Below, one piece after another: positions 3,338 to 45,791 of a DNA stretch of 45,791 bases (its first letter is position 1; each line of letters begins with the position of its first letter). Origin of the DNA: Candidatus Eiseniibacteriota bacterium. Its GTDB lineage: Bacteria; Orphanbacterota; Orphanbacteria; Orphanbacterales; Orphanbacteraceae. The notes under the pieces are model-generated. The model was not told the origin of the DNA and ran no database searches. It saw only the letters and a program-made list of their open reading frames with translations. Location of the stretch: positions 1-45,791 of the forward strand of contig JBDRFQ010000362.1 of assembly GCA_043818685.1 (NCBI GenBank), read 5' to 3'. Both the position numbers and the translations under genes were made by a program.

Positions 3338-6592
<3,255 letters not shown>

Positions 6593-11403: not shown

Positions 11404-11940
11404 ATGCAGGTCTCGATCACGGCGCGCCATTTCGACCTGACGGAGGGGCTGCGGAAGCACGCAGAGGAGAAGCTGACGCGACTCGCCAGGTACGGCTTGC
11501 CCCTTCGCGAGGCCCACGTGGTGCTCGTCGTGGAGAAGCACCGCCACAAGGCGGAGGTGACCCTGCACGGGACCGGGTTCCGCCTGACCGGCGCTTCGGA
11601 ATCGGACGACATGTACTCGTCGGTCGATCAGGTCGCGCAGAAGTTGGAGTCGCAGGTTCGGAGGCACAAGGGAAAGGTGCTGAGCCGGAAGCAGAAGGAG
11701 AGACGCGACTCGGGCGCGCGGGTCCAGGTGGTCAGCTCGAAGAGCGTCGGAAAGGGAGAGGAGAGCCTGCGCGTCGTCGGTTCGAGCGAGGAGCCCGCTC
11801 CCGACCTGACCGTCGAGGAGGCGATTCTCCGCCTCGAGGAGGGGGACGAGGACTACCTGCTCTTCATGAACCCCGTTTCGGAGAGGCTGACGGTCGTCCT
11901 CCGGCGCAAGGACGGCGACTACGGCGTGATCGAGGTCTAG
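11404..11940 (+). CDS. hpf: Ribosome hibernation promoting factor (long HPF)
   Basis: MQVSITARHFDLTEGLRKHAEEKL matches the S30AE/HPF N-domain. The C-terminal dimerisation-domain-like tail (LLFMNPVSERLTVVLRRKDGDYGVIE) is also present. Confidence 0.9.
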   Translation: MQVSITARHFDLTEGLRKHAEEKLTRLARYGLPLREAHVVLVVEKHRHKAEVTLHGTGFRLTGASESDDMYSSVDQVAQKLESQVRRHKGKVLSRKQKERRDSGARVQVVSSKSVGKGEESLRVVGSSEEPAPDLTVEEAILRLEEGDEDYLLFMNPVSERLTVVLRRKDGDYGVIEV

Positions 11941-17484: not shown

Positions 17485-18762
17485 ATGCGAATGCCTTCGA
17501 AGACCGATGCGGAGCACAAGGTGAAGGACCTCTCCCTCGCCGACGAGGGGCTGAGGAAGATCGAGTGGGCGGAGTCGCGGATGCCGGTTCTGATGCGGCT
17601 GAGGGAGCGCTACGCGGGAGAGAAGCCCCTGAAGGGAGCTCGTATCGCCGGGTGCCTCCATGTGACGAAGGAGACGGCGGTGCTCGTCCGGACCCTGGTC
17701 GCGGCCGGGGCGGAAGTCGCCTGGTCCGGGTGCAACCCACTCTCGACGCAGGACGACGTGGCGGCCGCGCTCGCGGCCGAGGGGACCCGGATCTACGCCT
17801 GGCACGGGATGAGCGTCGAAGAGTTCTACTGGTGCATCGATCGGACGCTCGAGATCGATCCGGTCTGCACGCTCGACGACGGGGCCGACCTGATCTTCTC
17901 GATCCACCACAGGCGGAAGGAGAGCCTCGGCTCGGTGTGGGGCGGAACGGAGGAGACGACGACCGGGGTCCATCGCTTGCGTGCGATGGCGGACGACGGG
18001 GCGCTCGGCTACCCGGTCATCGCCGTGAACAACGCGGAGACGAAGTGGGATTTCGACAACGTGTACGGCACCGGCCAGTCATCGTTGGACGGGATCCTGC
18101 GCGCGACGTCGATCCTCATCGCGGGGAAGAACTTCGTCGTCGCCGGCTTCGGCCGATGCGGGCGGGGCTGCGCGATGCGCGCGAAAGGCCTCGGCGCCAA
18201 CGTCTTGGTCACCGAGGTGAATCCGATCCGCGCCCTGCAGGCGACGCTCGAGGGCTATCGGGTGCTTCCGATGGAGGAGGCGGCCGCCTTGGGGGACATC
18301 TTCATCACCGCGACGGGGATGAAGGACGTCCTCGTCGGCCGGCATTTCGACGCCATGAAGGACGGGGCGGTCGTCTGCAACACCGGGCACTACGACTGCG
18401 AGATCCGGATCGGCGATCTCGATGCACGGGCCCGCTCGCAGAGAGAGATCCGGCGGGACAACGAGGAGTTCACCCTGAAGGACGGGCGGCGGATCTATCT
18501 GCTGGCGAAAGGTCGCCTGGTAAACCTCGCGGCCGCGGAGGGCCATCCCTCCGAGGTGATGGACATGAGCTTCGCGAACCAGTTCCTCTCGATGAAGTAC
18601 ATCGTCGAGAACCGGGGGAGGCTCGAGAACAAGGTCTACGACGTTCCGAAGGAACAGGACGAGGAGATCGCGACGCTGAAGCTCGAGACGATGGGACTCC
18701 GAATCGACCGGCTGACGGAGGACCAGGTCAGGTACCGGACGGACTACGCGTCGGGGACGTAG
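17485..18762 (+). CDS. ahcY: Adenosylhomocysteinase
   Basis: LADEGLRKIEWAESRMPVL, CLHVTKETAVL, GGTEETTTGVHRL and the NAD-binding GFGRCGRG. GGGAGGAG lies upstream of the ATG at 17485. Confidence 0.95.
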   Translation: MRMPSKTDAEHKVKDLSLADEGLRKIEWAESRMPVLMRLRERYAGEKPLKGARIAGCLHVTKETAVLVRTLVAAGAEVAWSGCNPLSTQDDVAAALAAEGTRIYAWHGMSVEEFYWCIDRTLEIDPVCTLDDGADLIFSIHHRRKESLGSVWGGTEETTTGVHRLRAMADDGALGYPVIAVNNAETKWDFDNVYGTGQSSLDGILRATSILIAGKNFVVAGFGRCGRGCAMRAKGLGANVLVTEVNPIRALQATLEGYRVLPMEEAAALGDIFITATGMKDVLVGRHFDAMKDGAVVCNTGHYDCEIRIGDLDARARSQREIRRDNEEFTLKDGRRIYLLAKGRLVNLAAAEGHPSEVMDMSFANQFLSMKYIVENRGRLENKVYDVPKEQDEEIATLKLETMGLRIDRLTEDQVRYRTDYASGT

Positions 18763-18828
18763 GCCTGCCCGGCGAGGGGCGGGGAACGGGGTTCCCGGGC
18801 ACGTGGCGTCCGGTTCGATTCTCCCGGG

Positions 18829-19012
18829 CTAGCCTGGATTATGCACGCGTTTCCTGCTGCGGCTGCGGGTCGCGGCCTCCGAGGCCTCCCTTCCGTCGCC
18901 GCTTCCTCAACGTAGTGCCGAGACTACGTTTCCGGGAGCGGCTCGTCCAGGTCGGCCTCTCGGCGCGCGCTCCGCATCCTCGCGACGAAAAGGCGTGCAT
19001 AATCCAGGCTAG
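18829..19012. mobile_element. MITE-like palindromic element, copy A (184 bp, intact)
   Basis: Perfect 20-bp terminal inverted repeats CTAGCCTGGATTATGCACGC. The arms are imperfectly palindromic, with a central hairpin AACGTAGT-gccgag-ACTACGTT. CTAG is present at both ends. Confidence 0.75.
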
Positions 19013-20091
19013 CGCCTCGCGAGCGCGCGGAAGAGAGCGATGCCGATCGCGAGAAAGAGGATGTTGGCGATCCACACGCTGAGGACGGGGGGAAGAAGCT
19101 CGTTGTACCCGACCGACTGGCCGACGCGGATCCCCAGATAGTAGACGAAGCAGATCAAGAGGGCGAGCGTGAAGCCGAGGGCGTTTCCCCCTCTCCGAAG
19201 AAGCGCGGCGAGCGGGCTCCCGAGGAGAACGATAAGGAAGTTCGTGAAGGGGAACGAGAGCTTCATGTAGAGATCCACTTCCTCCTTCCGGACCTCCCCC
19301 CCGTTCATCTTCGCCTTCCTGATGTACTTCTTGAGTTCTCGATAGCTCATCTGTCTCGGGTTCTTCTGGATCTTCCCGAAGTCCTCCGGTGTTTCCCGGA
19401 TCTCCGGCTCCGTCCGCTCCTCGAAGGGGACCGCCTCGTCGAGCCCCTCGGCGGAGAAGCGCCGGAAGTACCCGTTCTCGAAGACCCACCTCCCGTTCTC
19501 CCACCTCGCCTTCTCGGCATCGATCCGCTGGATGAGCGTGTTGTTTCTGAGCAGCTGAACGACGACGTCCTCCATCCGTCCCTTCTCCACGTCCAGCCGC
19601 CCGATCCGGAACAGGCGCCCGTTGTCGCCGAGGAAGGAAAGGTTCGTCCGCAGGCGGGCGGTCCGGCGCCTCCCGGGCTTGATGATCTCGTCCTGGATCG
19701 TGTTCACCCGCTCCGCGGCCGGGGGGGCGAGGGTCTCGCCGGCGACGAGGGCGGCGAGGCTGACGGCGAGCCCGATGAAGAGGACGGGAAGAAGAGTACG
19801 GCGCATGCTGATCCCCGCGGTGAGCGTCGCGAGGAACTCGTTGTTCCTGGCGTGCGCTCCGAGCGAGAAGAGGCAGGCGAGGAGCATGCCGATCGGGAGC
19901 ATGAGGAGGAGGATCTCGGGCATGCGGAAAAGGTAGTAGCTCCCCACGACGGCGAGGGGGACTCCCTGATCGAGAAAGTCGTCGAGCTTCTCGAACAGGT
20001 CGAGCACAACGAAGATCGCGAGGAACGCCGCGAGCGCCAAGGCGAGGGAGAGAAGATATCGGGAGAGCACGTATCGGTCGAGGATCCTCAT
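19009..20091 (-). CDS. lptG: LptF/LptG-family LPS export permease (YjgP/YjgQ)
   Basis: MRILDRYVLSRYL... with multiple TM segments and a central periplasmic domain. The F versus G assignment rests on order only. The stop codon (CTA at 19009-19011) lies inside the CTAG end of MITE copy A. Confidence 0.75.
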   Translation of the reverse strand: MRILDRYVLSRYLLSLALALAAFLAIFVVLDLFEKLDDFLDQGVPLAVVGSYYLFRMPEILLLMLPIGMLLACLFSLGAHARNNEFLATLTAGISMRRTLLPVLFIGLAVSLAALVAGETLAPPAAERVNTIQDEIIKPGRRRTARLRTNLSFLGDNGRLFRIGRLDVEKGRMEDVVVQLLRNNTLIQRIDAEKARWENGRWVFENGYFRRFSAEGLDEAVPFEERTEPEIRETPEDFGKIQKNPRQMSYRELKKYIRKAKMNGGEVRKEEVDLYMKLSFPFTNFLIVLLGSPLAALLRRGGNALGFTLALLICFVYYLGIRVGQSVGYNELLPPVLSVWIANILFLAIGIALFRALARR

Positions 20092-24800: not shown

Positions 24801-27800
24801 ACGGCTTCCTCGACACGGAGGACCTGAACGGGAACGGCTACGTGGACGAGGAGAAGGCGTACTTCCGGTTCACGATCGATCTGGGGAGCGACGAGTTCGT
24901 CGCCGCGAGGGGATCGCAGGAGGGGAGCCGGAACTGGCGTCTCTTCCGAGTCCCCCTTGCGAAGACCGAGGCGGTGAGCGTCGGCGGCATCGTCCCGACC
25001 TTCGACAAGGGGGTGAAGTACGTCCGCTTCTGGTTCAACGAGCTCGACACGACGAATGCCCGCTTCCAGATCTACTCGGTGGAGGTGACGGGGAACCGGT
25101 GGCTCGAGGCGGGGCTCCAGGACTCGAGCGGCGCGCTGATCGACACCTCGGAGGCGGACCCGTTCGAGATCTTCGCCGCCGGCGTGATCAACAACAAGGA
25201 CGGCGAGCCGTACGATCCGCCGCCGGTCGAGATCATCGTGGAGCGCGAGGTGCCCGAAAAGGAGCAGTCCCTCGTTCTGAACTACGAGAACCTGCACCCC
25301 GGCCACACGGGCACCGTCTTTCGAGCGCTCTTTGACGACGAGGACTACACGCGCTACCAGAGCATGGAGTTCTGGGCGAAGCGTGCGGAGCCGCACGGGG
25401 ACTTCGAGCCGTATCCTCTCTTCTTCTTCCGGTTCGGCGGGGACTCCCTGAACTTCTACGAGTTCTCGACGGTGCTGGACAGCGCCTCGGGGACGAGCTG
25501 GCAGAGAGTCGTGCTCGATCTCGCTTCCCTCACGCGGGTCAAGCTGCAGGAGCCGGGGGCGGACTCGCTCTACGGGCGCGCCGTCGAGGCGAGGCGGGAC
25601 ACGGTCGTCGTGGAGACCGCGCGGGGACCGCAGGTCTACGTCTACTCGGCCGTTGGAAACCCCAGCATGACGAAGGTGCGGCGGCTCACGTTCGGGGTGA
25701 CGAATCCTTCCCGCGAGAAGGACCTGACGGGGGTGATCTGGATCGACGATCTTCGATTACTCGACGTCAAGGGGGACCCGGGGTATGCGGGGAGGGTGGG
25801 GGCCGATCTCAAGCTCGCCGACTTCATCGCCGTGAGCGGCGACTACCGGAAGGTCGGCAAGGAGTTCCGCAACCTCAGCGGCGGGGGATCCGCGCGGGGA
25901 GGCGAGGAGGGGGACGAGAACCCGCGGAGGGGGAGCGACGAGACGGAGACGAACCTCACGGGATCGATCAAGCTCGGGAAGTTCATCGAGAGCGTCAATC
26001 TCCCCCTGCCGCTCACGATGAACTGGTCGAAGAGCGTCAGCCTTCCCGAGCTGCAGAACGCCTCCGACATCGTCCTCGCCGATCCATCCACGGAGAAGTC
26101 GGAACGTAAATCGGAGGGCGCGTCACTTTCGATTCAGAGATCGAGGAAGTCGGAGAGCCCGTGGCTCTACTACGGGTTCGATTCGATGGGCCTCAGGCTG
26201 AACGGCAGGCGGGGAAGCTCGTTCAACCCGACCAAGATCGACTCCTCGTCTTCGTACGGAGTGGACTGGACCTACAACTACGCCCCGCGCTTCAACACGG
26301 AGCTGAAGGTCTTCCGAACCTGGAAGGTCGACTTCCTCCCGACCAACGCGAGCGTCTCGGCGCACCGCGAGCGGTCGACGAACACGAGCATCGACGTCCG
26401 GTCCGACTCGAAGAGAAAGGTGGAGGCGCGCAAGTCGACCTCCGATTTCGGCTTCGCGATGAAGCCGGTGAGCAGCGAGAGCTTCACCTCCGATTTCGGG
26501 TTCACGACCAACCGAGACCACCTCTACGGAAGACCGCTTTCGTTCCTCGCCTCGGTGAACCGGGGCTTCGAGGTCCGGCGGAACCACGACACGAAGCTCT
26601 CGTACACGCCCGGCTTCAGCTCGCTCCTCGCCTGGTTCAACCCGCGGCTCCAGTACGGCACGAAGTACTCCGAGGAGATGCCGATCGCCCAGCGCCAGGT
26701 GATACGGGACGAAGACACCGGGGACACCCTCTCCGTTCGGACGCTCCACAACGTCCAGAACACGAACACGAGCTCCGTCGACTTCACCGTGGGGGTCGCG
26801 AGGCTCTTCCAGGCGATTCCGGGGGTGGACGACGGAGAGGAGACGGACAGCGCGAAGACCCGCTTCGGGCCCCGGTCGGTGCTCAGAGGGGTCCGGGACG
26901 CGGGAACGAGGATCGGGGACGTCACCGCGGCGGTCAGCTACGGGCGGGACTCCCGCTACGACCGCATCACGGGGCGTCCCGATCTGCGCTACCAGTTCGG
27001 CCTCACCGATCGGATCGACTCGCTTCTGCAGGAGAGGACCGCCGGCCAAACCGTCACGGCGAACACGAGCCGGACCCTCACCACGCGCGCCTCCTCGTCG
27101 GTGCGGCTTCCGGCGTCGATGAACCTCCGCGTCTCCTTCAACTCGTCCAGGCAGAGGAGCGACCAGTCTCGGAACTCGAGAGAATCCAAGAACACGACAT
27201 GGCCCGATCTCGCGTACAGCTGGGACGGGCTCGAGGAGCTGTGGAAGCTCGAGAACTACCTCCGGTCCGCGTCGATGGATCTGGGCTACAACCATAGGAC
27301 GGAGCAGTCGGGGAAGACGCTCGCCCAGATCGAGTCGGAACGTGAGTCCACGCGGTGGGACCCGCTCGTCGGTCTTGAGCTGGACTGGCTGAACGGGGTC
27401 CGGAGCAGCCTCTCCGCCGACCGCGCGCGGGAGACGTCCCGGACCTTCCGGGGCGGGTTCTCGGAGAAGGTCTCCACGAGCCAGGGGATCAGCGCCTCCT
27501 TCTCGTACAAGATGTCGTCCCGGAAGACGGTCAACATCCCGATCCTCGGCAAGGGGACGAAGGGAGGGTCTTTCACCGCGACGACGAACTTCTCCCTCGA
27601 CTTCCGCTTCGACACGAGCAAGGAAGAGCAGACCCAGCCCTACCGGCTGGACGCGCACACACGGAACTTCAGCATCCGCCCGAGGGTGACCTGGACGTGG
27701 CTGCAGAACCTCTCCGGAGGCCTCGAGCTTCAGTTCGGGGAGCGAAGGAACCTGAAAAACGAAAACCGGAGCACGAGGACGATCGGTGCCAGCATTTCCG

Positions 27801-27817
27801 CGCTCTTCAAGTTCTAG
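21830..27817 (+). CDS. sprA: Giant outer-membrane protein, SprA/Sov-like (type IX secretion translocon family)
   Basis: Signal peptide MRFGSRRGTARRIAAVLACIAAAALPAFG. The motif GNTNLALPGNQFVSFSAQQQGLFGVKVVGKAGKLDFTTILSQQQG resembles the SprA N-terminal signature as I recall it. About 1995 aa, beta-rich, ending in an aromatic residue (...ALFKF) as in OM barrels. An alternative start is 21803. Confidence 0.6.
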   Translation: MRFGSRRGTARRIAAVLACIAAAALPAFGAEPRADVAGARPFSLIRNPVHRNHPAFFSEARIAPYPEPQRALLKLPGDGAATSLRVDLDRGLVIVEQSLQETPLVYPWVASLAEYIAALRRFGIRRELIKSGRSVEARAGGSGESGMFDIDLPVRFPRTLSRIIGQGANIQVSGSESITFSGETQYFIKERDNESGGQRKFPELDMRQQLQINLTGTIGEKVKVEVQHNSESQVPLENRIKLRYEGFEDEVIQRIEVGNTNLALPGNQFVSFSAQQQGLFGVKVVGKAGKLDFTTILSQQQGRTDRETYAGGGREDSLVINDLDYIRERFFVVNEFRPVDDIRVFVDDDNATNNTGAQVQARAFVDVQDPSSSTQEQPGWFDEMEESVDYYINREIGVLTLNRSLPENYTLAIWYGVGGVDVGEVPPEASTDSSVVATLQLIRPPAEFYRPTNERFGKTWYYQLRNVYDLRARSIVEEGFDLRIYRKAAGAEERFDQQGGKTFLEILGLDVVDQSSNSSSDDRVDGQYFGAGNKIAEKAGIPPGASLPYVPTLLVDYDLGLLFFPDLRPFDPAYNHQFAGSPVESLTEGNSVIYDNHDPKPNDSKYEIQVKYRTSQGSFSLNRSNILEGSEVVKVDGRTLTRGADYRIIYEIGQIEFLADIPPDAKITVDFEYAPFLSQAQKSLAGIAGTYNLSDRTKLSSIWLYKGKRTPYRRPRLGQEPSRIVVGGLSLATEREPEFLTELTDRIPGITPSEGSSFRVDFETAATFPNPNTKNAVYIDDMEGTEESSSFGITRRQWDVMSIPKTGTGVHELDWESRYREVWWYNPKNATTRGDLNPSLSSEERIKFVPVLEVALRDGTVAGGTDRGAWGGVMRLVSKTGLDLKERKFFEVWINDFDLNRGKLHVDMGLLGEDAMWSAAEPNGTLDTEDKSGDGVLDDTGTNGPTDEDTGLDRLFNAQEPGTGGDPSGDDWGYDENRPDDYSRINGTENNGFLDTEDLNGNGYVDEEKAYFRFTIDLGSDEFVAARGSQEGSRNWRLFRVPLAKTEAVSVGGIVPTFDKGVKYVRFWFNELDTTNARFQIYSVEVTGNRWLEAGLQDSSGALIDTSEADPFEIFAAGVINNKDGEPYDPPPVEIIVEREVPEKEQSLVLNYENLHPGHTGTVFRALFDDEDYTRYQSMEFWAKRAEPHGDFEPYPLFFFRFGGDSLNFYEFSTVLDSASGTSWQRVVLDLASLTRVKLQEPGADSLYGRAVEARRDTVVVETARGPQVYVYSAVGNPSMTKVRRLTFGVTNPSREKDLTGVIWIDDLRLLDVKGDPGYAGRVGADLKLADFIAVSGDYRKVGKEFRNLSGGGSARGGEEGDENPRRGSDETETNLTGSIKLGKFIESVNLPLPLTMNWSKSVSLPELQNASDIVLADPSTEKSERKSEGASLSIQRSRKSESPWLYYGFDSMGLRLNGRRGSSFNPTKIDSSSSYGVDWTYNYAPRFNTELKVFRTWKVDFLPTNASVSAHRERSTNTSIDVRSDSKRKVEARKSTSDFGFAMKPVSSESFTSDFGFTTNRDHLYGRPLSFLASVNRGFEVRRNHDTKLSYTPGFSSLLAWFNPRLQYGTKYSEEMPIAQRQVIRDEDTGDTLSVRTLHNVQNTNTSSVDFTVGVARLFQAIPGVDDGEETDSAKTRFGPRSVLRGVRDAGTRIGDVTAAVSYGRDSRYDRITGRPDLRYQFGLTDRIDSLLQERTAGQTVTANTSRTLTTRASSSVRLPASMNLRVSFNSSRQRSDQSRNSRESKNTTWPDLAYSWDGLEELWKLENYLRSASMDLGYNHRTEQSGKTLAQIESERESTRWDPLVGLELDWLNGVRSSLSADRARETSRTFRGGFSEKVSTSQGISASFSYKMSSRKTVNIPILGKGTKGGSFTATTNFSLDFRFDTSKEEQTQPYRLDAHTRNFSIRPRVTWTWLQNLSGGLELQFGERRNLKNENRSTRTIGASISALFKF

Positions 27818-27996
27818 CCTGGACTCCGCACGCGTTTCCTGCTGCGGCCGCGGATCTCGGCCTGCGGGGCCTTCTTTCCGTCGCCGCTTCCTCAACAGGG
27901 ACCCGTGGCGCGCGTGGCTCTTGTCGCGACGGCTAGGAGCGACAAGTCTTAGCGCGCCGGGGGGGAGGCCGAGACTCCGTTTCCGGGACCGGCTCG
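27814..27996. mobile_element. MITE-like element, copy B (left end intact, centre replaced, right end degenerate)
   Basis: The first ~83 bp align with copy A (CTAGCCTGGACTCCGCACGCGTTTCCTGCTGCGG...CTTCCTCAAC). A private 71-bp insert follows at 27897-27967. Homology then resumes (GCCGAGACTCCGTTTCCGGGACCGGCTCG) and fades. Confidence 0.6.
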
Positions 27997-28901
27997 CCGG
28001 CGCCGGCGTCCTTCCGGCGGTCGCCGCGGCGCTCGCGCTCTCTGCGGGGTCCGGCCTCTCATTCGACGGAGAGAGGGCGATGGCTCACGTCCGCGCGCAG
28101 GTCGCCTTCGGACCCCGGATTCCCGGGACGGAGGGTCACGAACGGATGAGGAAGTGGCTCACGCGGGAGCTCCGGGGCAGCGCCGACGCGGTTGCCGAGC
28201 GGCCGTTCCCGGGGGTCAATTCCCTTACCGGCTCGACCTTCACCGGGACGAACATCATCGCCTCGTTCCGCCCCGAGCTCGAAGACCGGATCTTCTTCGG
28301 GGCTCACTGGGACACGCGCGCACAGGCGGACCACGACCCGGATCCGGCACGCCGGACCGAGCCGGTGCCGGGAGCGAACGACGGAGGGAGCGGGGTCGCC
28401 GTGCTCTTCGCCCTCGCCGAGGCGCTCGATCGCCGCCCTCCGCCGGTCGGCGTGGACCTCCTCTTTCTCGACGGGGAGGATCAGGGGAGCCCCGGCGGTC
28501 CGGGAGGCTATTGCCTCGGCGCGCGCGCATTCGCCGCGTCCTCGTCGCTCACCGGCTTCGCCCCCCGCTACGGGGTGATCATCGACATGGTGGGTCACCG
28601 GAACCTCCGCGTCGCGCGGGAGAGCAGCTCCATGGAGTGCTGCGCGGACTGGCTCGATCGAATCATGAAGATCGGCGAGCGGATCGCGCCTGACGTCTTC
28701 GGGAGCACGGAGACGGTCTCCCTCTACGACGATCACATTCCCTTCATCGAGGCGGGGATCCCGACGATCGTTCTGTCCGGGTCCGGCTACCCGGAGTGGC
28801 ACACGACCGCGGATCTCCCCGACATCTGCTCCCCCGGAAGCCTCGGGGCGGTCGGTTCGCTCCTCGAGGAGCTCGTGCACGGCGGCCACGAAATTCCTTG
28901 A
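27921..28901 (+). CDS. M28-family glutaminyl-peptide cyclotransferase-like protein
   Basis: FGPRIPGTEGH...NIIASF...FFGAHWDTRAQADHDPDP...PGANDGGSGVAVLFALAEAL...LLFLDGEDQG matches the bacterial animal-type QC/M28 pattern. The only canonical in-frame start that retains the signal-peptide-like segment (RPRLRFRDRLAGAGVLPAVAAALALSAG) is TTG 27921, inside MITE copy B. The start is uncertain. Confidence 0.55.
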   Translation: MSRRLGATSLSAPGGRPRLRFRDRLAGAGVLPAVAAALALSAGSGLSFDGERAMAHVRAQVAFGPRIPGTEGHERMRKWLTRELRGSADAVAERPFPGVNSLTGSTFTGTNIIASFRPELEDRIFFGAHWDTRAQADHDPDPARRTEPVPGANDGGSGVAVLFALAEALDRRPPPVGVDLLFLDGEDQGSPGGPGGYCLGARAFAASSSLTGFAPRYGVIIDMVGHRNLRVARESSSMECCADWLDRIMKIGERIAPDVFGSTETVSLYDDHIPFIEAGIPTIVLSGSGYPEWHTTADLPDICSPGSLGAVGSLLEELVHGGHEIP

Positions 28902-31378: not shown

Positions 31379-31672
31379 GTGGGCTTCGCCCTTCGGACCG
31401 GGAGGGTCGTCGCCGGCGAGACCGGAGCGCGGATCGCGGCGCGGCGCCGGAAGAGCGGTGTGCTCCTCATCGCATCCGACATGGATGAGAAGAGCGCCGC
31501 GCGGGTCCGGGCCTGGGCAAGGGAGGTCCCGATTCCGGTCTTCGCCCCGCTCGAGGCGGAAGCGCTGGCGGAGGCGGCCGGGCGGGGGCGCTGCGACGTC
31601 CTTCTCGTGGAGGACAGAAACGTCGCTCGGTCTCTCGCGAAGGAGCTTGGCGAGGCCTCCGGTTTCTGCTAG
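31379..31672 (+). CDS. L7Ae/YlxQ-family RNA-binding protein
   Basis: GFALRTGRVVAGETGARIAARRRKSGVLLIASDMDE... with the typical position between ylxR and infB. Start is uncertain (GTG 31379). The TAG stop lies inside the end of MITE copy C. Confidence 0.65.
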   Translation: MGFALRTGRVVAGETGARIAARRRKSGVLLIASDMDEKSAARVRAWAREVPIPVFAPLEAEALAEAAGRGRCDVLLVEDRNVARSLAKELGEASGFC

Positions 31673-31846
31673 CCTGGTCCACGCACGCGTTTTCGTCGCG
31701 AGGACGCGGAGCGCGTGCCGAGGGGCCGACATGAACGGGCCACTCCCTGAAGCGTAGTCTCGGCGCCACGCCCCAGGAAGCGGCGATGGAGAGCAGGCCT
31801 CGAAGGCCGCGGCTGCAGCAGGAAGCGGGCGCAGAATCCGGGCTTG
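31669..31846. mobile_element. MITE-like element, copy C (178 bp, inverted relative to A, diverged)
   Basis: It aligns end to end with copy D at roughly three quarters identity by eye. The left end is CTAGCCTGG. The right end ...GCAGAATCCGGGCTTG has its terminal CTAG mutated to CTTG. Confidence 0.7.
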
Positions 31847-40385: not shown

Positions 40386-41003
40386 GTGGCGAGGCCGAGC
40401 AATCCCGAGCTTCCTGCGGCGATCCTGGAAGCGGCCGAGAAGAGAGTGGCCGCCTCGGGGCACGATGGCCTCAACATGCGGGACCTGGCGGCGGATGTCG
40501 GGGTGACTCCCGCCGCCCTCTATTACTACTTCGCCTCCAAGGAGCGCATCCTCCTGGAGCTCAGGCTCCGCGCGGCTTGCCGGCTCAGCGAGACCATGCG
40601 CAAGATCGATGGATCGCACGGCGCGCGGGCGGCGATTCGGGCCTTGGGCGTGGCCTACATTGCATTTGCCGAGGAGCATCCGCACCTGTACGGCCTGCTC
40701 GTGGAGACGAGGATCGGAGCCGAGCTCGCGTCCGGCGAGGAGACAGAGACCCTCCGTCTCCCTTACGATGCCGCGCGCCGTCTCCTCGAGAACCTCGTGG
40801 ACCGCGGCCTCTGCGTGTGCGACCCGGACGGGAGGGCCGCGATCGGGTGGATTCTCCTTCACGGCTTCTGCTCGCTCCTTGCGGCAGGCAACCTGGAGGC
40901 GGTCAGCCGGCTCGACCGCGAGACCCTCAAGGAGACGTTTCTCGAGTACTTCGGTACCGGCCCGTTCATCGACGGTGAGCCGGGTCGGACCGCCCCTGAC
41001 TAG
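40386..41003 (+). CDS. TetR/AcrR-family transcriptional regulator
   Basis: HTH segment LNMRDLAADVGVTPAALYYYFASKERIL. GTG 40386 follows GGGGAGGAA (alternative TTG 40365). The TAG stop lies inside the end of MITE copy D. Confidence 0.85.
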   Translation: MARPSNPELPAAILEAAEKRVAASGHDGLNMRDLAADVGVTPAALYYYFASKERILLELRLRAACRLSETMRKIDGSHGARAAIRALGVAYIAFAEEHPHLYGLLVETRIGAELASGEETETLRLPYDAARRLLENLVDRGLCVCDPDGRAAIGWILLHGFCSLLAAGNLEAVSRLDRETLKETFLEYFGTGPFIDGEPGRTAPD

Positions 41004-41183
41004 CCTGGATTATGCACGCGTTTTCGTCGCGAGGGTGAGGAGCGCGAGCCGAGAGGCCGACCTGGACGAGCCGCTCCCGGAGACGTAGTCACGGCCCTAC
41101 GTTGAGGAAGCGGCGACGGAAGGGAGGCCTCGTAGGCCGCGATCCGCAGCCGCAGTAGGAAACGCGTGCACAATCCAGGCGAG
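41000..41183. mobile_element. MITE-like element, copy D (184 bp, inverted near-identical copy of A)
   Basis: Its reverse complement aligns with copy A over the full length, with about 12 mismatches by eye. The left end is CTAGCCTGGATTATGCACGC. The right-end CTAG is mutated to CGAG. Confidence 0.75.
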
Positions 41184-41192
41184 GAGGAAGGA

Positions 41193-42473
41193 ATGAAAGC
41201 GCGACGTGCGTGGATCCGGTCGGTCTTCTTCTCGGCGCTCCTTGCGGCGGCCGCTTGGAGCCTGTGCTGCTCGCCCGACAAAGACGGGGGCGGGGCCGAG
41301 CGTTCAGCCGGTGGCATCGAGTTCCGTGAGGAGATCGTGGCCGGAGGGCCCGACGACTTCATGGAGGTGCGACACATCGTACTTCGCGGCTCGAACTTCG
41401 AGATCGGCAGGAAGCTTGCCGAGATCGCGAGAGAGCGTCACGGCGCCGGACCGATCCCCTCTCGGGCGCCGGAGGAGACGCGTGCCCAGCGCGAGTACTT
41501 CGAGGCGCACTACCCGGTCCTCGTCGAGCGCATGAGGGGAGCGGCAGCGGCCTTCGGCCTGGATCTCCGAGAAGACGGCTGGAACCTCTCCGGGCTCCTC
41601 TACGGCTTCCGGTTCGGCGGGTGCAGCGTGGTCTTCTACCCGCCCGGGACGTCCGAGACGGGAAGGGGCGTCCTCAGCAGGAACTTCGACTTCACGACCG
41701 GAACGTTCCTGGGCGAGAAGCCCCGGGAGGGCGAGCTGCCCGCCTGCGCGCGGCCGTACGTGGTCGAGATGCATCCCGATAAAGGCCACGCGTCGCTCGC
41801 GATCTGCTCCTTTGACCTCCTCACGGGCGTCATGGACGGCATCAACTCGGAGGGTCTCGCGGTAGCAATCCTCGGCGACAACGACGTGATCTCCGAGGTC
41901 GGCATGAGCCCCACGAGGGGAGCCCACGCCGGCTTCAACGAGACCCAGATCCTCCGCTGCATCCTCGACACCTGCGCCGATGTGGAAGAGGCGAAGCGGC
42001 TGCTCCGGGATGCGGATCTCTACTACAACACCGCCCCCTATCACTACATCGTCGCCGACAGGCACGGAGACGCGTTCATCTGGGAGAACGCGCCCGGCAT
42101 GGAGGAGGGCTTTACCGTCGAATCGCCCGGCGAGCCGCTCGTCACCACGAACTTCCTGCTCCACAGGTATCCGGACCCGTCCGGGCTGCCCGAGGAGGCG
42201 GAGCCCCTGGGCTGGTTCAACCGCTATCGGGAGATCAAGCGGCGCCTCGATGAGACCGCGCCTCCGTACGACCTCGCGTTCATCAGGGAAACGAACCGGT
42301 GCGTTTCCTTCGACGGGGAACAACCGGAGATCGAGCCCTACCCCCCCGGCGCCACGATGTGGCATGCGCTGTACCATCCGGTCGAGCTGAGGGCGGAGGT
42401 CGATTTCTACCTCGGCCGGGATGCGGACGGGGCTGTCCGCCGGTCGGGGTCTGTTGCGCTCGCGCTCGAGTAG
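41193..42473 (+). CDS. Putative lipoprotein, Ntn-hydrolase-like (peptidase C45 / acyltransferase-type fold suspected)
   Basis: Lipoprotein-like N-terminus (LLAAAAWSLCC). An internal GGCSVVFY could be a Gly-Cys autoprocessing/nucleophile site as in C45 enzymes. The family call is tentative. Confidence 0.4.
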   Translation: MKARRAWIRSVFFSALLAAAAWSLCCSPDKDGGGAERSAGGIEFREEIVAGGPDDFMEVRHIVLRGSNFEIGRKLAEIARERHGAGPIPSRAPEETRAQREYFEAHYPVLVERMRGAAAAFGLDLREDGWNLSGLLYGFRFGGCSVVFYPPGTSETGRGVLSRNFDFTTGTFLGEKPREGELPACARPYVVEMHPDKGHASLAICSFDLLTGVMDGINSEGLAVAILGDNDVISEVGMSPTRGAHAGFNETQILRCILDTCADVEEAKRLLRDADLYYNTAPYHYIVADRHGDAFIWENAPGMEEGFTVESPGEPLVTTNFLLHRYPDPSGLPEEAEPLGWFNRYREIKRRLDETAPPYDLAFIRETNRCVSFDGEQPEIEPYPPGATMWHALYHPVELRAEVDFYLGRDADGAVRRSGSVALALE

Positions 42474-44569: not shown

Positions 44570-45480
44570 GAGCGTTCGATTGGATCTTCATCGCGCGTCC
44601 GATCGTCCTGATCCCCGCGTGGGCGTTTCTGATCGTCGGGTATTTTCGGGCGAACGAGCGCTCCGGCGAGTTCTCCCCGCCGCTTGGGCCGCTCCTTCTC
44701 CCGTTCGTTCTCCTTACGGTCGTTCTGGCCGGCGCCTACATCGTCAACCAGATCTACGACCGGGAGACGGACAAGGAGAACGGGAAGCTCTTCCTGATCG
44801 CCGAGGGGCACGTTTCGGTGCGCGGCGCCTGGATCGAGGCGGTTCTGCTCATGGCGGGGGGGCTCGCCGCATCGCTCGTTCTTCGCCCGGGCCTCCTCCC
44901 CTGGCTCCTCGCCTCGGCGCTTCTCGGCCTTCTCTACTCGGTTCCGCCGGCGCGCTTCAAGGGGAGGCCGGTCCTCGACCTCGTGGCGAACGCGTGCGGC
45001 TACGGGGCGGTCACCTTCCTCTTCGGGTTCTCTCTGGCCGGCCGTGCCGGCGCGGAGGAGATCGCCCACGCTCTCCCCTACGTGCTGCTTGTCGGAGCGG
45101 TCTTCCTTCACACGGCGCTCGTCGATCAGGACGGGGACAGGAAGGCGGGGATGAGGACGACCGCGGTCGCGCTCGGTGACCGCGCGACGTCGGCCGCGGC
45201 GCTCGTTCTCCTCGCGCTGGCGGGGCTCGCCGGGGTCCGGGTCGGAGAGCCGTACGTTCCTCCGGCGGCGATCGGCGCGTCTCCCTTCTTCCTCTGGGGG
45301 GCCCTCTTCCCCGGCCGCAAGGGGAGCACGCTTGCCTATCAGTGGGGGAGCCTCCTCTTCGTTCTTCTTGTCGTGATGCGCGTGCCGCTCTTCGGGCTCC
45401 TACTCGTTCTCCTCGTCGCCGCGACGCGCGCCTACTACCGGTTTCGCCTCAACCTGGTCTATCCCCGGCTCGACTTCTAG
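44563..45480 (+). CDS. UbiA-family prenyltransferase
   Basis: Multi-TM protein with NQIYDRETDKEN (NxxxDxxxD) and a second Asp-rich motif VDQDGDRKAGMRT. Its 5' end overlaps the deacetylase 3' end by 7 nt (ATGCTGA). The TAG stop lies inside solo fragment F. Confidence 0.8.
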   Translation: MLRAFDWIFIARPIVLIPAWAFLIVGYFRANERSGEFSPPLGPLLLPFVLLTVVLAGAYIVNQIYDRETDKENGKLFLIAEGHVSVRGAWIEAVLLMAGGLAASLVLRPGLLPWLLASALLGLLYSVPPARFKGRPVLDLVANACGYGAVTFLFGFSLAGRAGAEEIAHALPYVLLVGAVFLHTALVDQDGDRKAGMRTTAVALGDRATSAAALVLLALAGLAGVRVGEPYVPPAAIGASPFFLWGALFPGRKGSTLAYQWGSLLFVLLVVMRVPLFGLLLVLLVAATRAYYRFRLNLVYPRLDF

Positions 45481-45510
45481 CCTGGATGATGCCCGCGTTC
45501 TCGTCGCTAG
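45477..45510. repeat. Solo terminal fragment of the MITE family (fragment F, 34 bp, CTAG at both ends)
   Basis: CTAGCCTGGATGATGCCCGCGTTCTCGTCGCTAG matches the first ~31 nt of the element arm CTAGCCTGGATTATGCACGCGTTTTCGTCGC. Confidence 0.5.
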
Positions 45511-45791
45511 TCGCGCGGCGGGCCGGTGCGCGGCCGGTCCCGCCGCTCGGCGCCTCGGCGTTCGATCGCTCGAAGATCGGCCGCCCGTTCCGGGTCCTCG
45601 CGAAGCGCGCCCGGAAAGCGCCTCTGCTCCGGTAACAGGCGGACGAGAGGGCCGTAGCCCCCGGAGTGGAGGACGTAGTGATGTCCGCCCCTGAGGGCGC
45701 GGTAGCGGACATCGTGCTCGCGGAGGTCGGCGACCTGGCCGGCGCGGAGGAGCCCAGCGCTCACCAGATCGGCGAGCGTCGGCGGGTAGCG
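45507..45791 (-). CDS. Partial hypothetical CDS (C-terminal part; runs off the window)
   Basis: The open frame reads ...RYPPTLADLVSAGLLRAGQVADLREHDVRYRALRGGHHYVLHSGGYGP.... It has a vague resemblance to pseudopilin C-terminal patterns, and the tail is low complexity. Coding status is uncertain. Confidence 0.3.
   Translation of the reverse strand, partial: RYPPTLADLVSAGLLRAGQVADLREHDVRYRALRGGHHYVLHSGGYGPLVRLLPEQRRFPGALREDPERAADLRAIERRGAERRDRPRTGPPRD

Follow-up and report, generated by a model that had tools for sequence, protein, structure and literature searches.

Several described groups of bacterial repeats and transposons come close to the element analysed here. MITEs (gene-less miniature transposons) derived from IS630/Tc1 elements are short, carry terminal inverted repeats (TIRs) and TA flanks, occur in multiple intergenic copies and fold into hairpins; TA flanks and a preference for CTAG are known from IS630 itself. 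The Correia elements (CREE) of Neisseria and the ERIC/IRU repeats are palindromes of ~100–190 bp that sit at TA sites, between genes or at their ends, and are co-transcribed with them. REPINs, which are inverted pairs of REP sequences mobilised by RAYT (an IS200-like Y1 transposase), are also palindromic intergenic repeats found just past genes. In piggyBac, the target is the palindrome TTAA, directly followed by ends that read CCCT..., and all four bases of the target are duplicated. The IS1380 family, with members such as IS1380, IS1247 and ISEcp1, comprises autonomous elements with short TIRs and one ORF that matches NF033539/PF13701. Classical members of this family are reported to make duplications of 4–5 bp, in the case of IS1247 of 5 bp (PMC3281130, Table 2). 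In piggyBac phylogenies, the IS1380 transposases are the prokaryotic outgroup (PMC10813416).

The window, that is the whole stretch of 45,791 nucleotides that was analysed, is a complete contig from a MAG of Candidatus Eiseniibacteriota, with five insertions of a short repeat (copies A to E) where a preliminary description of this DNA had listed one. That description had interpreted the repeat as a MITE-like, non-coding and mobile element with TA inside CTAG as its target, and as a product of the IS630/Tc1 or the REPIN family. The first half of this interpretation stands and the family assignment does not: the 184-bp unit is, with a high degree of confidence, a non-autonomous MITE of a widespread IS1380-family lineage that is targeted to TA and silent at stop codons. 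It differs from the known IS1380 members in being gene-less and only 184 bp long, and in having flanks that point to a TA duplication with a preference for C-TA-G in place of the classical 4–5 bp. Compared with CREE and ERIC/IRU, which are proteobacterial and have an uncertain parent transposase, the parent family is identified here; the likeness to those repeats is one of general description.

Copy A shows the architecture of the unit best (the coordinates of all features are collected in Table 1). The preliminary description had called it a 184-bp palindrome with perfect 20-bp inverted ends, and direct reading of the sequence confirms this: positions 18829–18848 read CTAGCCTGGATTATGCACGC, and 18993–19012 are the exact reverse complement. 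In a repeat search, the arms reach a length of 25 nt with 96% complementarity. The flanking TA dinucleotides lie at 18830–18831 and 19010–19011, so that the element proper covers 18832–19009 (GCCTGG...CCAGGC). The perfect 8-bp central hairpin that had been noted is present as well (AACGTAGT at 18909–18916, ACTACGTT at 18923–18930), and the two arms, described earlier as homologous to each other in inverted orientation, match on opposite strands in a blastn self-comparison with ~69% identity. Folding had been proposed for the whole unit; when computed, either strand forms one long hairpin, at -113 kcal/mol for one strand and -120 kcal/mol for the other, with z-scores of -9.2 and -10.7 relative to dinucleotide shuffles. 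The claims that the unit lacks coding capacity and that the window holds no transposase also hold, since the codon-position bias in GC is absent across 18790–18970 and tblastn with IS1380 transposases gives no match in the window. At 184 bp and without coding capacity the palindrome falls in the usual range of MITEs (~50–500 bp), and it is a gene-less miniature transposon of this kind.

Table 1. Positions of the MITE copies and their parts in the window.
Feature	Position	Strand	Remarks
MITE copy A	18829..19012	+	Direct reading, repeat search, fold, relatives' sites
Left terminal inverted repeat, copy A (IS1380 IRL-type end)	18829..18852	+	
Right terminal inverted repeat, copy A	18989..19012	-	Its CTA (19009-19011) is the lptG TAG stop
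Central 8-bp hairpin, copy A (AACGTAGT / ACTACGTT)	18909..18930	not assigned	Tip of the long fold
MITE copy C, long variant, decayed	27814..~28060	+	Right terminus lost
MITE copy E	31669..31844	-	79% identical to A
MITE copy B	41000..41183	-	93% identical to A, inverted relative to A
Solo terminus D	45477..45510	+	34-nt remnant, right-arm type

With up to three mismatches allowed, the 20-mer terminus occurs six times in the window, compared with zero times in 100 shuffles. The five insertions amount to one copy per 9 kb of the 45.8-kb contig, with identities of 79–100%. Copy B has a degenerate right end, from which it is 9 bp to the start codon of the acyltransferase-like gene downstream (ATG at 41193). 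Copy C consists of a left arm (27814–27896), a central insert of 71 bp (27897–27967) and a remnant of the right arm from 27968 onwards. It represents a long form of ~250 bp in which a segment of 66–71 bp takes the place of the central hairpin, also found in loci L009, L013 and L068; the segment has a hairpin of its own (CTTGTCGCGACGGCnAGGAGCGACAAG). Copy E is placed between an L7Ae-like gene and infB, within the conserved rimP-nusA-(L7Ae-like)-infB cluster, and here a very stable hairpin is tolerated inside what is normally a single operon. A second CTAG (45507) closes solo terminus D and is also the stop of a putative minus-strand ORF of 85 aa (45507..45764); the 34-nt remnant may thus take up all the space between a convergent pair of genes, as a similar one does in L123.

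The terminus is not confined to this contig. An exact scan with a 19-mer of the terminus over one genome per species found it on 19 contigs. Seven of these belong to the MAG JAGUYC01 (labelled Gemmatimonadetes), which contains the 184-bp element at 91–96% identity, with copies that match copy A at 96%, together with the ~250-bp form, and nine belong to a MAG labelled Lentisphaerae, where the identical 20 nt are followed by a wholly different interior. A slightly degenerate pattern of the terminus retrieved 100 metagenome loci with GC contents of 39–70% and many unrelated interiors, from marine, lake, sediment, hypersaline, gut and fermenter sources; among them are mini-palindromes of 55–57 bp with nothing but the two ends. 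In viral contigs, a scan for the terminus gave zero matches. That the TIRs might be shared by chance had been named in the preliminary description as a point on which the MITE reading could fail; they are common to far more loci than chance would give (19 from genomes, 100 from metagenomes). The copies are dispersed and have different flanks, both in the window (five), on the seven JAGUYC01 contigs and in the metagenomes, as is typical for a MITE.

Among the loci there are also other forms with the same type of ends. The shortest are palindromes of 55–76 bp, which consist of two IS1380-type ends placed head to head between TA flanks, with no other content (L039 6191–6251, L065 1063–1121, L114 979–1037 and L094 1056–1135). 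These are probably the smallest form that can be mobilised. A second non-autonomous element, ~219 bp long and found outside the window, has IS1380-type ends and an asymmetric interior (L002 1550–1768 and 2695–2866, L027, L056, L061 and others), and more than 30 distinct copies of it are present among the fetched loci. The ~115 nt on its 5' side fold into a domain of three helices, where pairing is preserved in 13 of 30 pairs despite changes on both sides. A scan of the L027 copy gave no Rfam match at E <= 0.01, and the ~219-bp element may be a putative structured RNA carried by a MITE.

The flanks of these elements indicate how the target is chosen. TA is found on both sides in 20 of the 26 complete elements, which supports the earlier suggestion of a TA-type target within CTAG. 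It should be kept in mind that the TA itself belonged to the scan patterns, but mate ends and IS copies retrieved by protein carry it too. The IS that encodes protein P0072, whose mobility is indicated by its presence at four different sites, has TA flanks at each of them. The base outside the TA was absent from all search patterns; C occupies this place in 64% of 151 distinct termini, ahead of T (26%), G (6%) and A (5%). When the 20 complete elements with TA flanks are considered, CTAG is present on both sides in ten, on one side in seven and on neither side in three. At a CTAG target, a 2-bp duplication of TA and a 4-bp duplication of CTAG yield the identical sequence. The variable outer base speaks against a 4-bp duplication of CTAG, which would need CTAG on both sides. 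Judged from the flanks, the better-supported inference is that 2 bp (TA) are duplicated and that C-TA-G is the favoured setting, because TA together with the element-terminal G or C fits all cases. The element would thus insert at a TA dinucleotide, preferably within C-TA-G, and leave TA on both sides. This resembles piggyBac in having a palindromic target centred on TA (TTAA there, (C)TA(G) here) and ends that start with CC(C)T, and differs from it in that only the TA is constant on both sides, not all four target bases.

The most distinctive feature of the element, which the preliminary description had not noted, is that its terminal TAG doubles as the stop codon of a neighbouring gene. Each of the five window copies supplies, with a terminal TAG in the correct GC3 phase, the stop codon of the gene beside it; the real ORFs were chosen by a GC3 phase plot, and the genes were named by Pfam. 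The TAG of copy A is the stop of lptG, on the minus strand at 19009–19011 (LptF_LptG, 2.8e-84), that of copy C (27815–27817) ends a 2004-aa SprA-like gene, that of copy E (31670–31672) the L7Ae-like gene, the left TAG of copy B (41001–41003) a TetR gene, and that of solo terminus D (45478–45480) a gene of the UbiA family. A full-length IS in L129 likewise sits on a TAG stop, in this case of a gene with an RF-1 domain. Among distinct termini, 36 of 128 close an ORF of at least 100 codons, whereas among all TAA/TAG triplets 9.3% do so (odds ratio 3.8, p = 1.5e-9). Relative to other CTAG sites the excess is modest (28% vs 19.5%, p = 0.03). The window contig has a GC content of 67% and only 16 CTAG sites, of which eight are in the elements; at least five of the other eight are also gene stops (hpf, nusA, infB, pnp and an aminotransferase gene). 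These five CTAG stops, at 11937, 31096, 34045, 39193 and 42540, are potential landing sites for the IS or the MITE.

The best explanation for the placement at stops is the targeting of TA, preferably C-TA-G, combined with the invariant terminal G. With G as its first and C as its last base, the element would rebuild TAG for a gene on either side when it inserts into the TA of a stop codon, regardless of whether the original stop was TAG or TAA. Such insertions would leave the protein unchanged and would for this reason survive, and in a genome with 67% GC, where CTAG is almost confined to stops, copies would come to lie exactly at the 3' ends of genes. Target preference and harmless insertion together explain most of the stop-codon pattern.

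A comparison with relatives was used to follow the element over time. The gene order is kept in these genomes, with sprA, lptF-lptG, and then ahcY and an NTP-transferase gene. In L120–L122 (80% LptG identity), the stops of lptG and ahcY are 3 bp apart and the element is absent; it is also absent in L124 (67% LptG identity), where the gap between the two genes is 57 bp. The absence of copy A at these orthologous sites bears out the mobility that had been proposed, and gives the lptG-ahcY site the presence/absence pattern expected of a MITE. In L123 (75% LptG identity), a degenerate solo terminus (GCAGCAGGAAACGCGTGtgggATCCcGGCTAG) makes up the whole 37-bp gap between the convergent genes lptG and ahcY (5087–5123). 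Here the TAG ends ahcY and not lptG, the gene that uses it in the window, and the insertion is therefore independent. The situation is different for copy C, which L125, an 80% relative, also has at the orthologous SprA stop. The right half of this copy has changed so much in both lineages that it can no longer be recognised, and the terminus is lost; copy C is an old insertion common to the window and L125. Since copy A is absent from relatives, L123 has its own insertion, and copy C is old and shared, this MITE family has a long history of insertion and decay. Older copies would decay to solo termini. An exact filled/empty pair at strain level was not found when in-silico excised junctions were compared with all loci, where the matches were tandem or nested copies, and exact-protein look-ups of the LptG and AHCY of the window for strain-level empty sites returned no record. 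For copy B, the nearest homologue of the TetR gene in the search for an empty site is just 60% identical. A 441-aa "gene" in L120 and L127 was also considered; it is unlike a transposase and, judged on its translation alone, is a probable spurious ORF.

The placement of the copies could suggest that the repeat has become useful to its host. According to such an explanation, it is a domesticated IS1380-derived element with a selected role at gene 3' ends, for example as a hairpin that stabilises or attenuates the mRNA, or as a protein-binding site. All five window insertions abut a stop codon, copy C has been kept at the SprA stop in the 80% relative, copy E is tolerated within the nusA-infB cluster, the fold is very stable, and the related ~219-bp element with the same ends has a covarying structured domain. 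The stop-codon association is for the most part explained by target preference alone, however, and the arm that abuts the gene is unbiased (6 vs 5). Copy C has been kept minus its right half and terminus in both lineages, and copy A is missing in relatives. In eight complete copies of the window-type element, only two of 69 pairs show compensatory changes while many pairs are broken; the covariation term is +3.4, in a test with low power because the copies are very similar. Taken together, a selected host function is improbable. Further searches fit with this: around copies A and B, there were zero T-tract terminator sites and no sigma-70-like promoter, a tRNA/tmRNA scan gave none, and the Rfam comparison proposed in the preliminary description, made for the whole window, had no match at the gathering score. 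In E-value mode, the only match of the element was to the model of a plant miRNA precursor, at 27 bits and so far below the gathering score of 168. No sign of a host function was found, although the copies may have incidental effects on mRNA 3' ends or, in the case of B and E, on the coupling within operons. Under the MITE reading, the long hairpin would be a by-product of two inverted IS ends and not a selected structure.

The identity of these IS ends follows from the autonomous elements that carry them. The terminus, TA followed by GCCTGGATTAT(G/T)CACGCG, is present in more than 100 public contigs and bounds single-gene elements of 1.4–1.7 kb. Without its G it reads CC..., the hallmark of the IS1380 family in ISfinder. 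At several loci, pairs of termini 1.4–1.7 kb apart enclose one ORF of 447–466 aa; over the autonomous elements with these termini as a whole, the ORF has 443–466 aa and the length is 1.44–1.71 kb. Against NF033539, the "IS1380 family transposase" model with a cut-off of 180 bits, two of the enclosed ORFs reach 344 and 367 bits, and the matches of enclosed ORFs to PF13701 have E-values of 1e-132 to 1e-140. By tblastn, an IS1380-family transposase gene adjoins the terminus in 18 metagenome loci, and termini were found on both sides of the transposase gene in L046, L070, L031, L085, L128–L132, L135 and L136. The transposases of the clade that bears the terminus have less than 38% identity to any in the plasmids of PLSDB. 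In the literature that was searched, neither the terminal sequence nor a link of IS1380 to CTAG targeting or to such MITEs was found described.

The resemblance between the MITE and these IS extends to the details of the ends. The first 20 nt of copy A past the flanking TA (GCCTGGATTATGCACGCGTT) are identical to the IS end that lies nearest to the transposase gene in L031. With this proximal end, as it is in the L031/L058/L092 clade, both ends of the MITE agree over 20–22 nt; they do not match the distal end of these IS. Hence the most fitting view of the MITE is that of one IS end present twice, in inverted orientation, from which the homology between the arms and the fold of the whole unit also follow. 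A homology search also found a 1,663-bp IS in a Candidatus Eisenbacteria MAG (L128, contig WJKF01000166, protein P0079). Its ends are TA followed by GCCTGGATTATGCA...; one reads TA followed by GCCTGGATTATGCATAG... and the other TA followed by GCCTGGTTTATGCAGG..., and past the TA the IS shares its first 14 nt with the MITE. An IS1380-family transposase encoded elsewhere in the genome would bind both ends and move the 184-bp unit.

In order to avoid the bias of a search by DNA pattern, IS copies were also retrieved by protein only. Of these, L135 (transposase 56% identical) has the ends CTAGCCCGAATTATTCAT, L133 has an end that reads TAGCCCGGATAATTCACG, and L136, a 37% identical IS1380-family element on a plasmid of Acidovorax temperans, has the perfect ends GCTAGCCCGGATATTTCAC. 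Because such protein-retrieved copies carry them, ends of the form TA followed by GCC(C/T)GGAT... are the usual ones in a large part of the IS1380 family. In L046, L031 and L048, with transposases as low as 30–35% identical, the ends agree at 19 of 20 positions (TAGCCTGGATTAT(G/T)CACGCG). This is unusually strong conservation, but these three loci were retrieved through that very pattern, and in the copies found by protein alone, about 14–16 nt are conserved. It is worth adding two observations on the full-length IS. In their leaders (L128 2897–3003, L129 2608–2713), CCATCG(T/C) can pair with (G/A)CGATGG across the start codon; like similar arrangements in many IS, this probably guards translation against outside read-through. 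The L128 copy adjoins two toxin-antitoxin pairs (282–1595), BrnT/BrnA and HicA with an HTH antitoxin, and these neighbours suggest a mobile or accessory region.

With the parent family at hand, the two origins named in the preliminary description can be judged. A MITE derived from IS630/Tc1-mariner, inserted into CTAG with duplication of TA, would be consistent with the TA flanks and the CTAG preference, and the unit is like the bacterial MITEs of that group in its size, TIRs, TA flanks, intergenic copies and hairpin fold. It differs from them in the parent transposase, which is IS1380 here. Every autonomous element bounded by these termini encodes a DDE transposase of the IS1380 family, no other type of transposase was found beside a terminus in ~135 loci, and the terminus resembles the ends of IS1380-family elements over a range of 37–100% transposase identity, all of which makes the IS630/Tc1 assignment very improbable. 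The REPIN origin is the least probable of all, for although the unit is a palindromic intergenic repeat just past genes and has GTAG/CTAC in its central hairpin, this GTAG is not conserved (in the long variant the 66–71-bp insert replaces the hairpin), the conserved parts are the outer termini and their TA flanks and not a GTAG-headed REP, identical DDE-type TIRs bound DDE transposase genes, and no Y1 transposase or RAYT is among the genes examined beside termini.

The repeat also has effects on the sequence data themselves. ORF calls run across MITE copies, as in window ORFs 17565..19082 and 27786..28901 and in L125 at 1279–2334, where the call for the M28 peptidase and that for sprA share 59 bp. 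Some contigs also begin or finish in the repeat (L005, L010, L011 and L014). Such run-through of ORFs and breaks of contigs at the copies are a practical artefact in annotation and assembly.

A MITE is a known kind of element and IS1380 a known family, and in this sense the repeat is an ordinary sort of selfish DNA. What the analysis adds is that a previously unrecognised repeat of Candidatus Eisenbacteria is now placed in a transposon family, and that TA/CTAG flanks do not imply IS630, which corrects a plausible but wrong family call. A more general picture can be offered tentatively, and as a whole it is rather doubtful: a large, mostly uncultured branch of IS1380, specific for TA/CTAG and with a terminal G/C that silences insertions into stops, would colonise gene 3' ends across many phyla with IS and a zoo of MITEs (55-bp, 184/250-bp and ~219-bp), some copies of which have perhaps been co-opted as RNA hairpins at 3' ends or within operons. 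The exact placement at stop codons follows a simple rule that is useful in the annotation of MAGs. If the duplication of TA only holds, the known target behaviour of the IS1380/piggyBac group would be extended.
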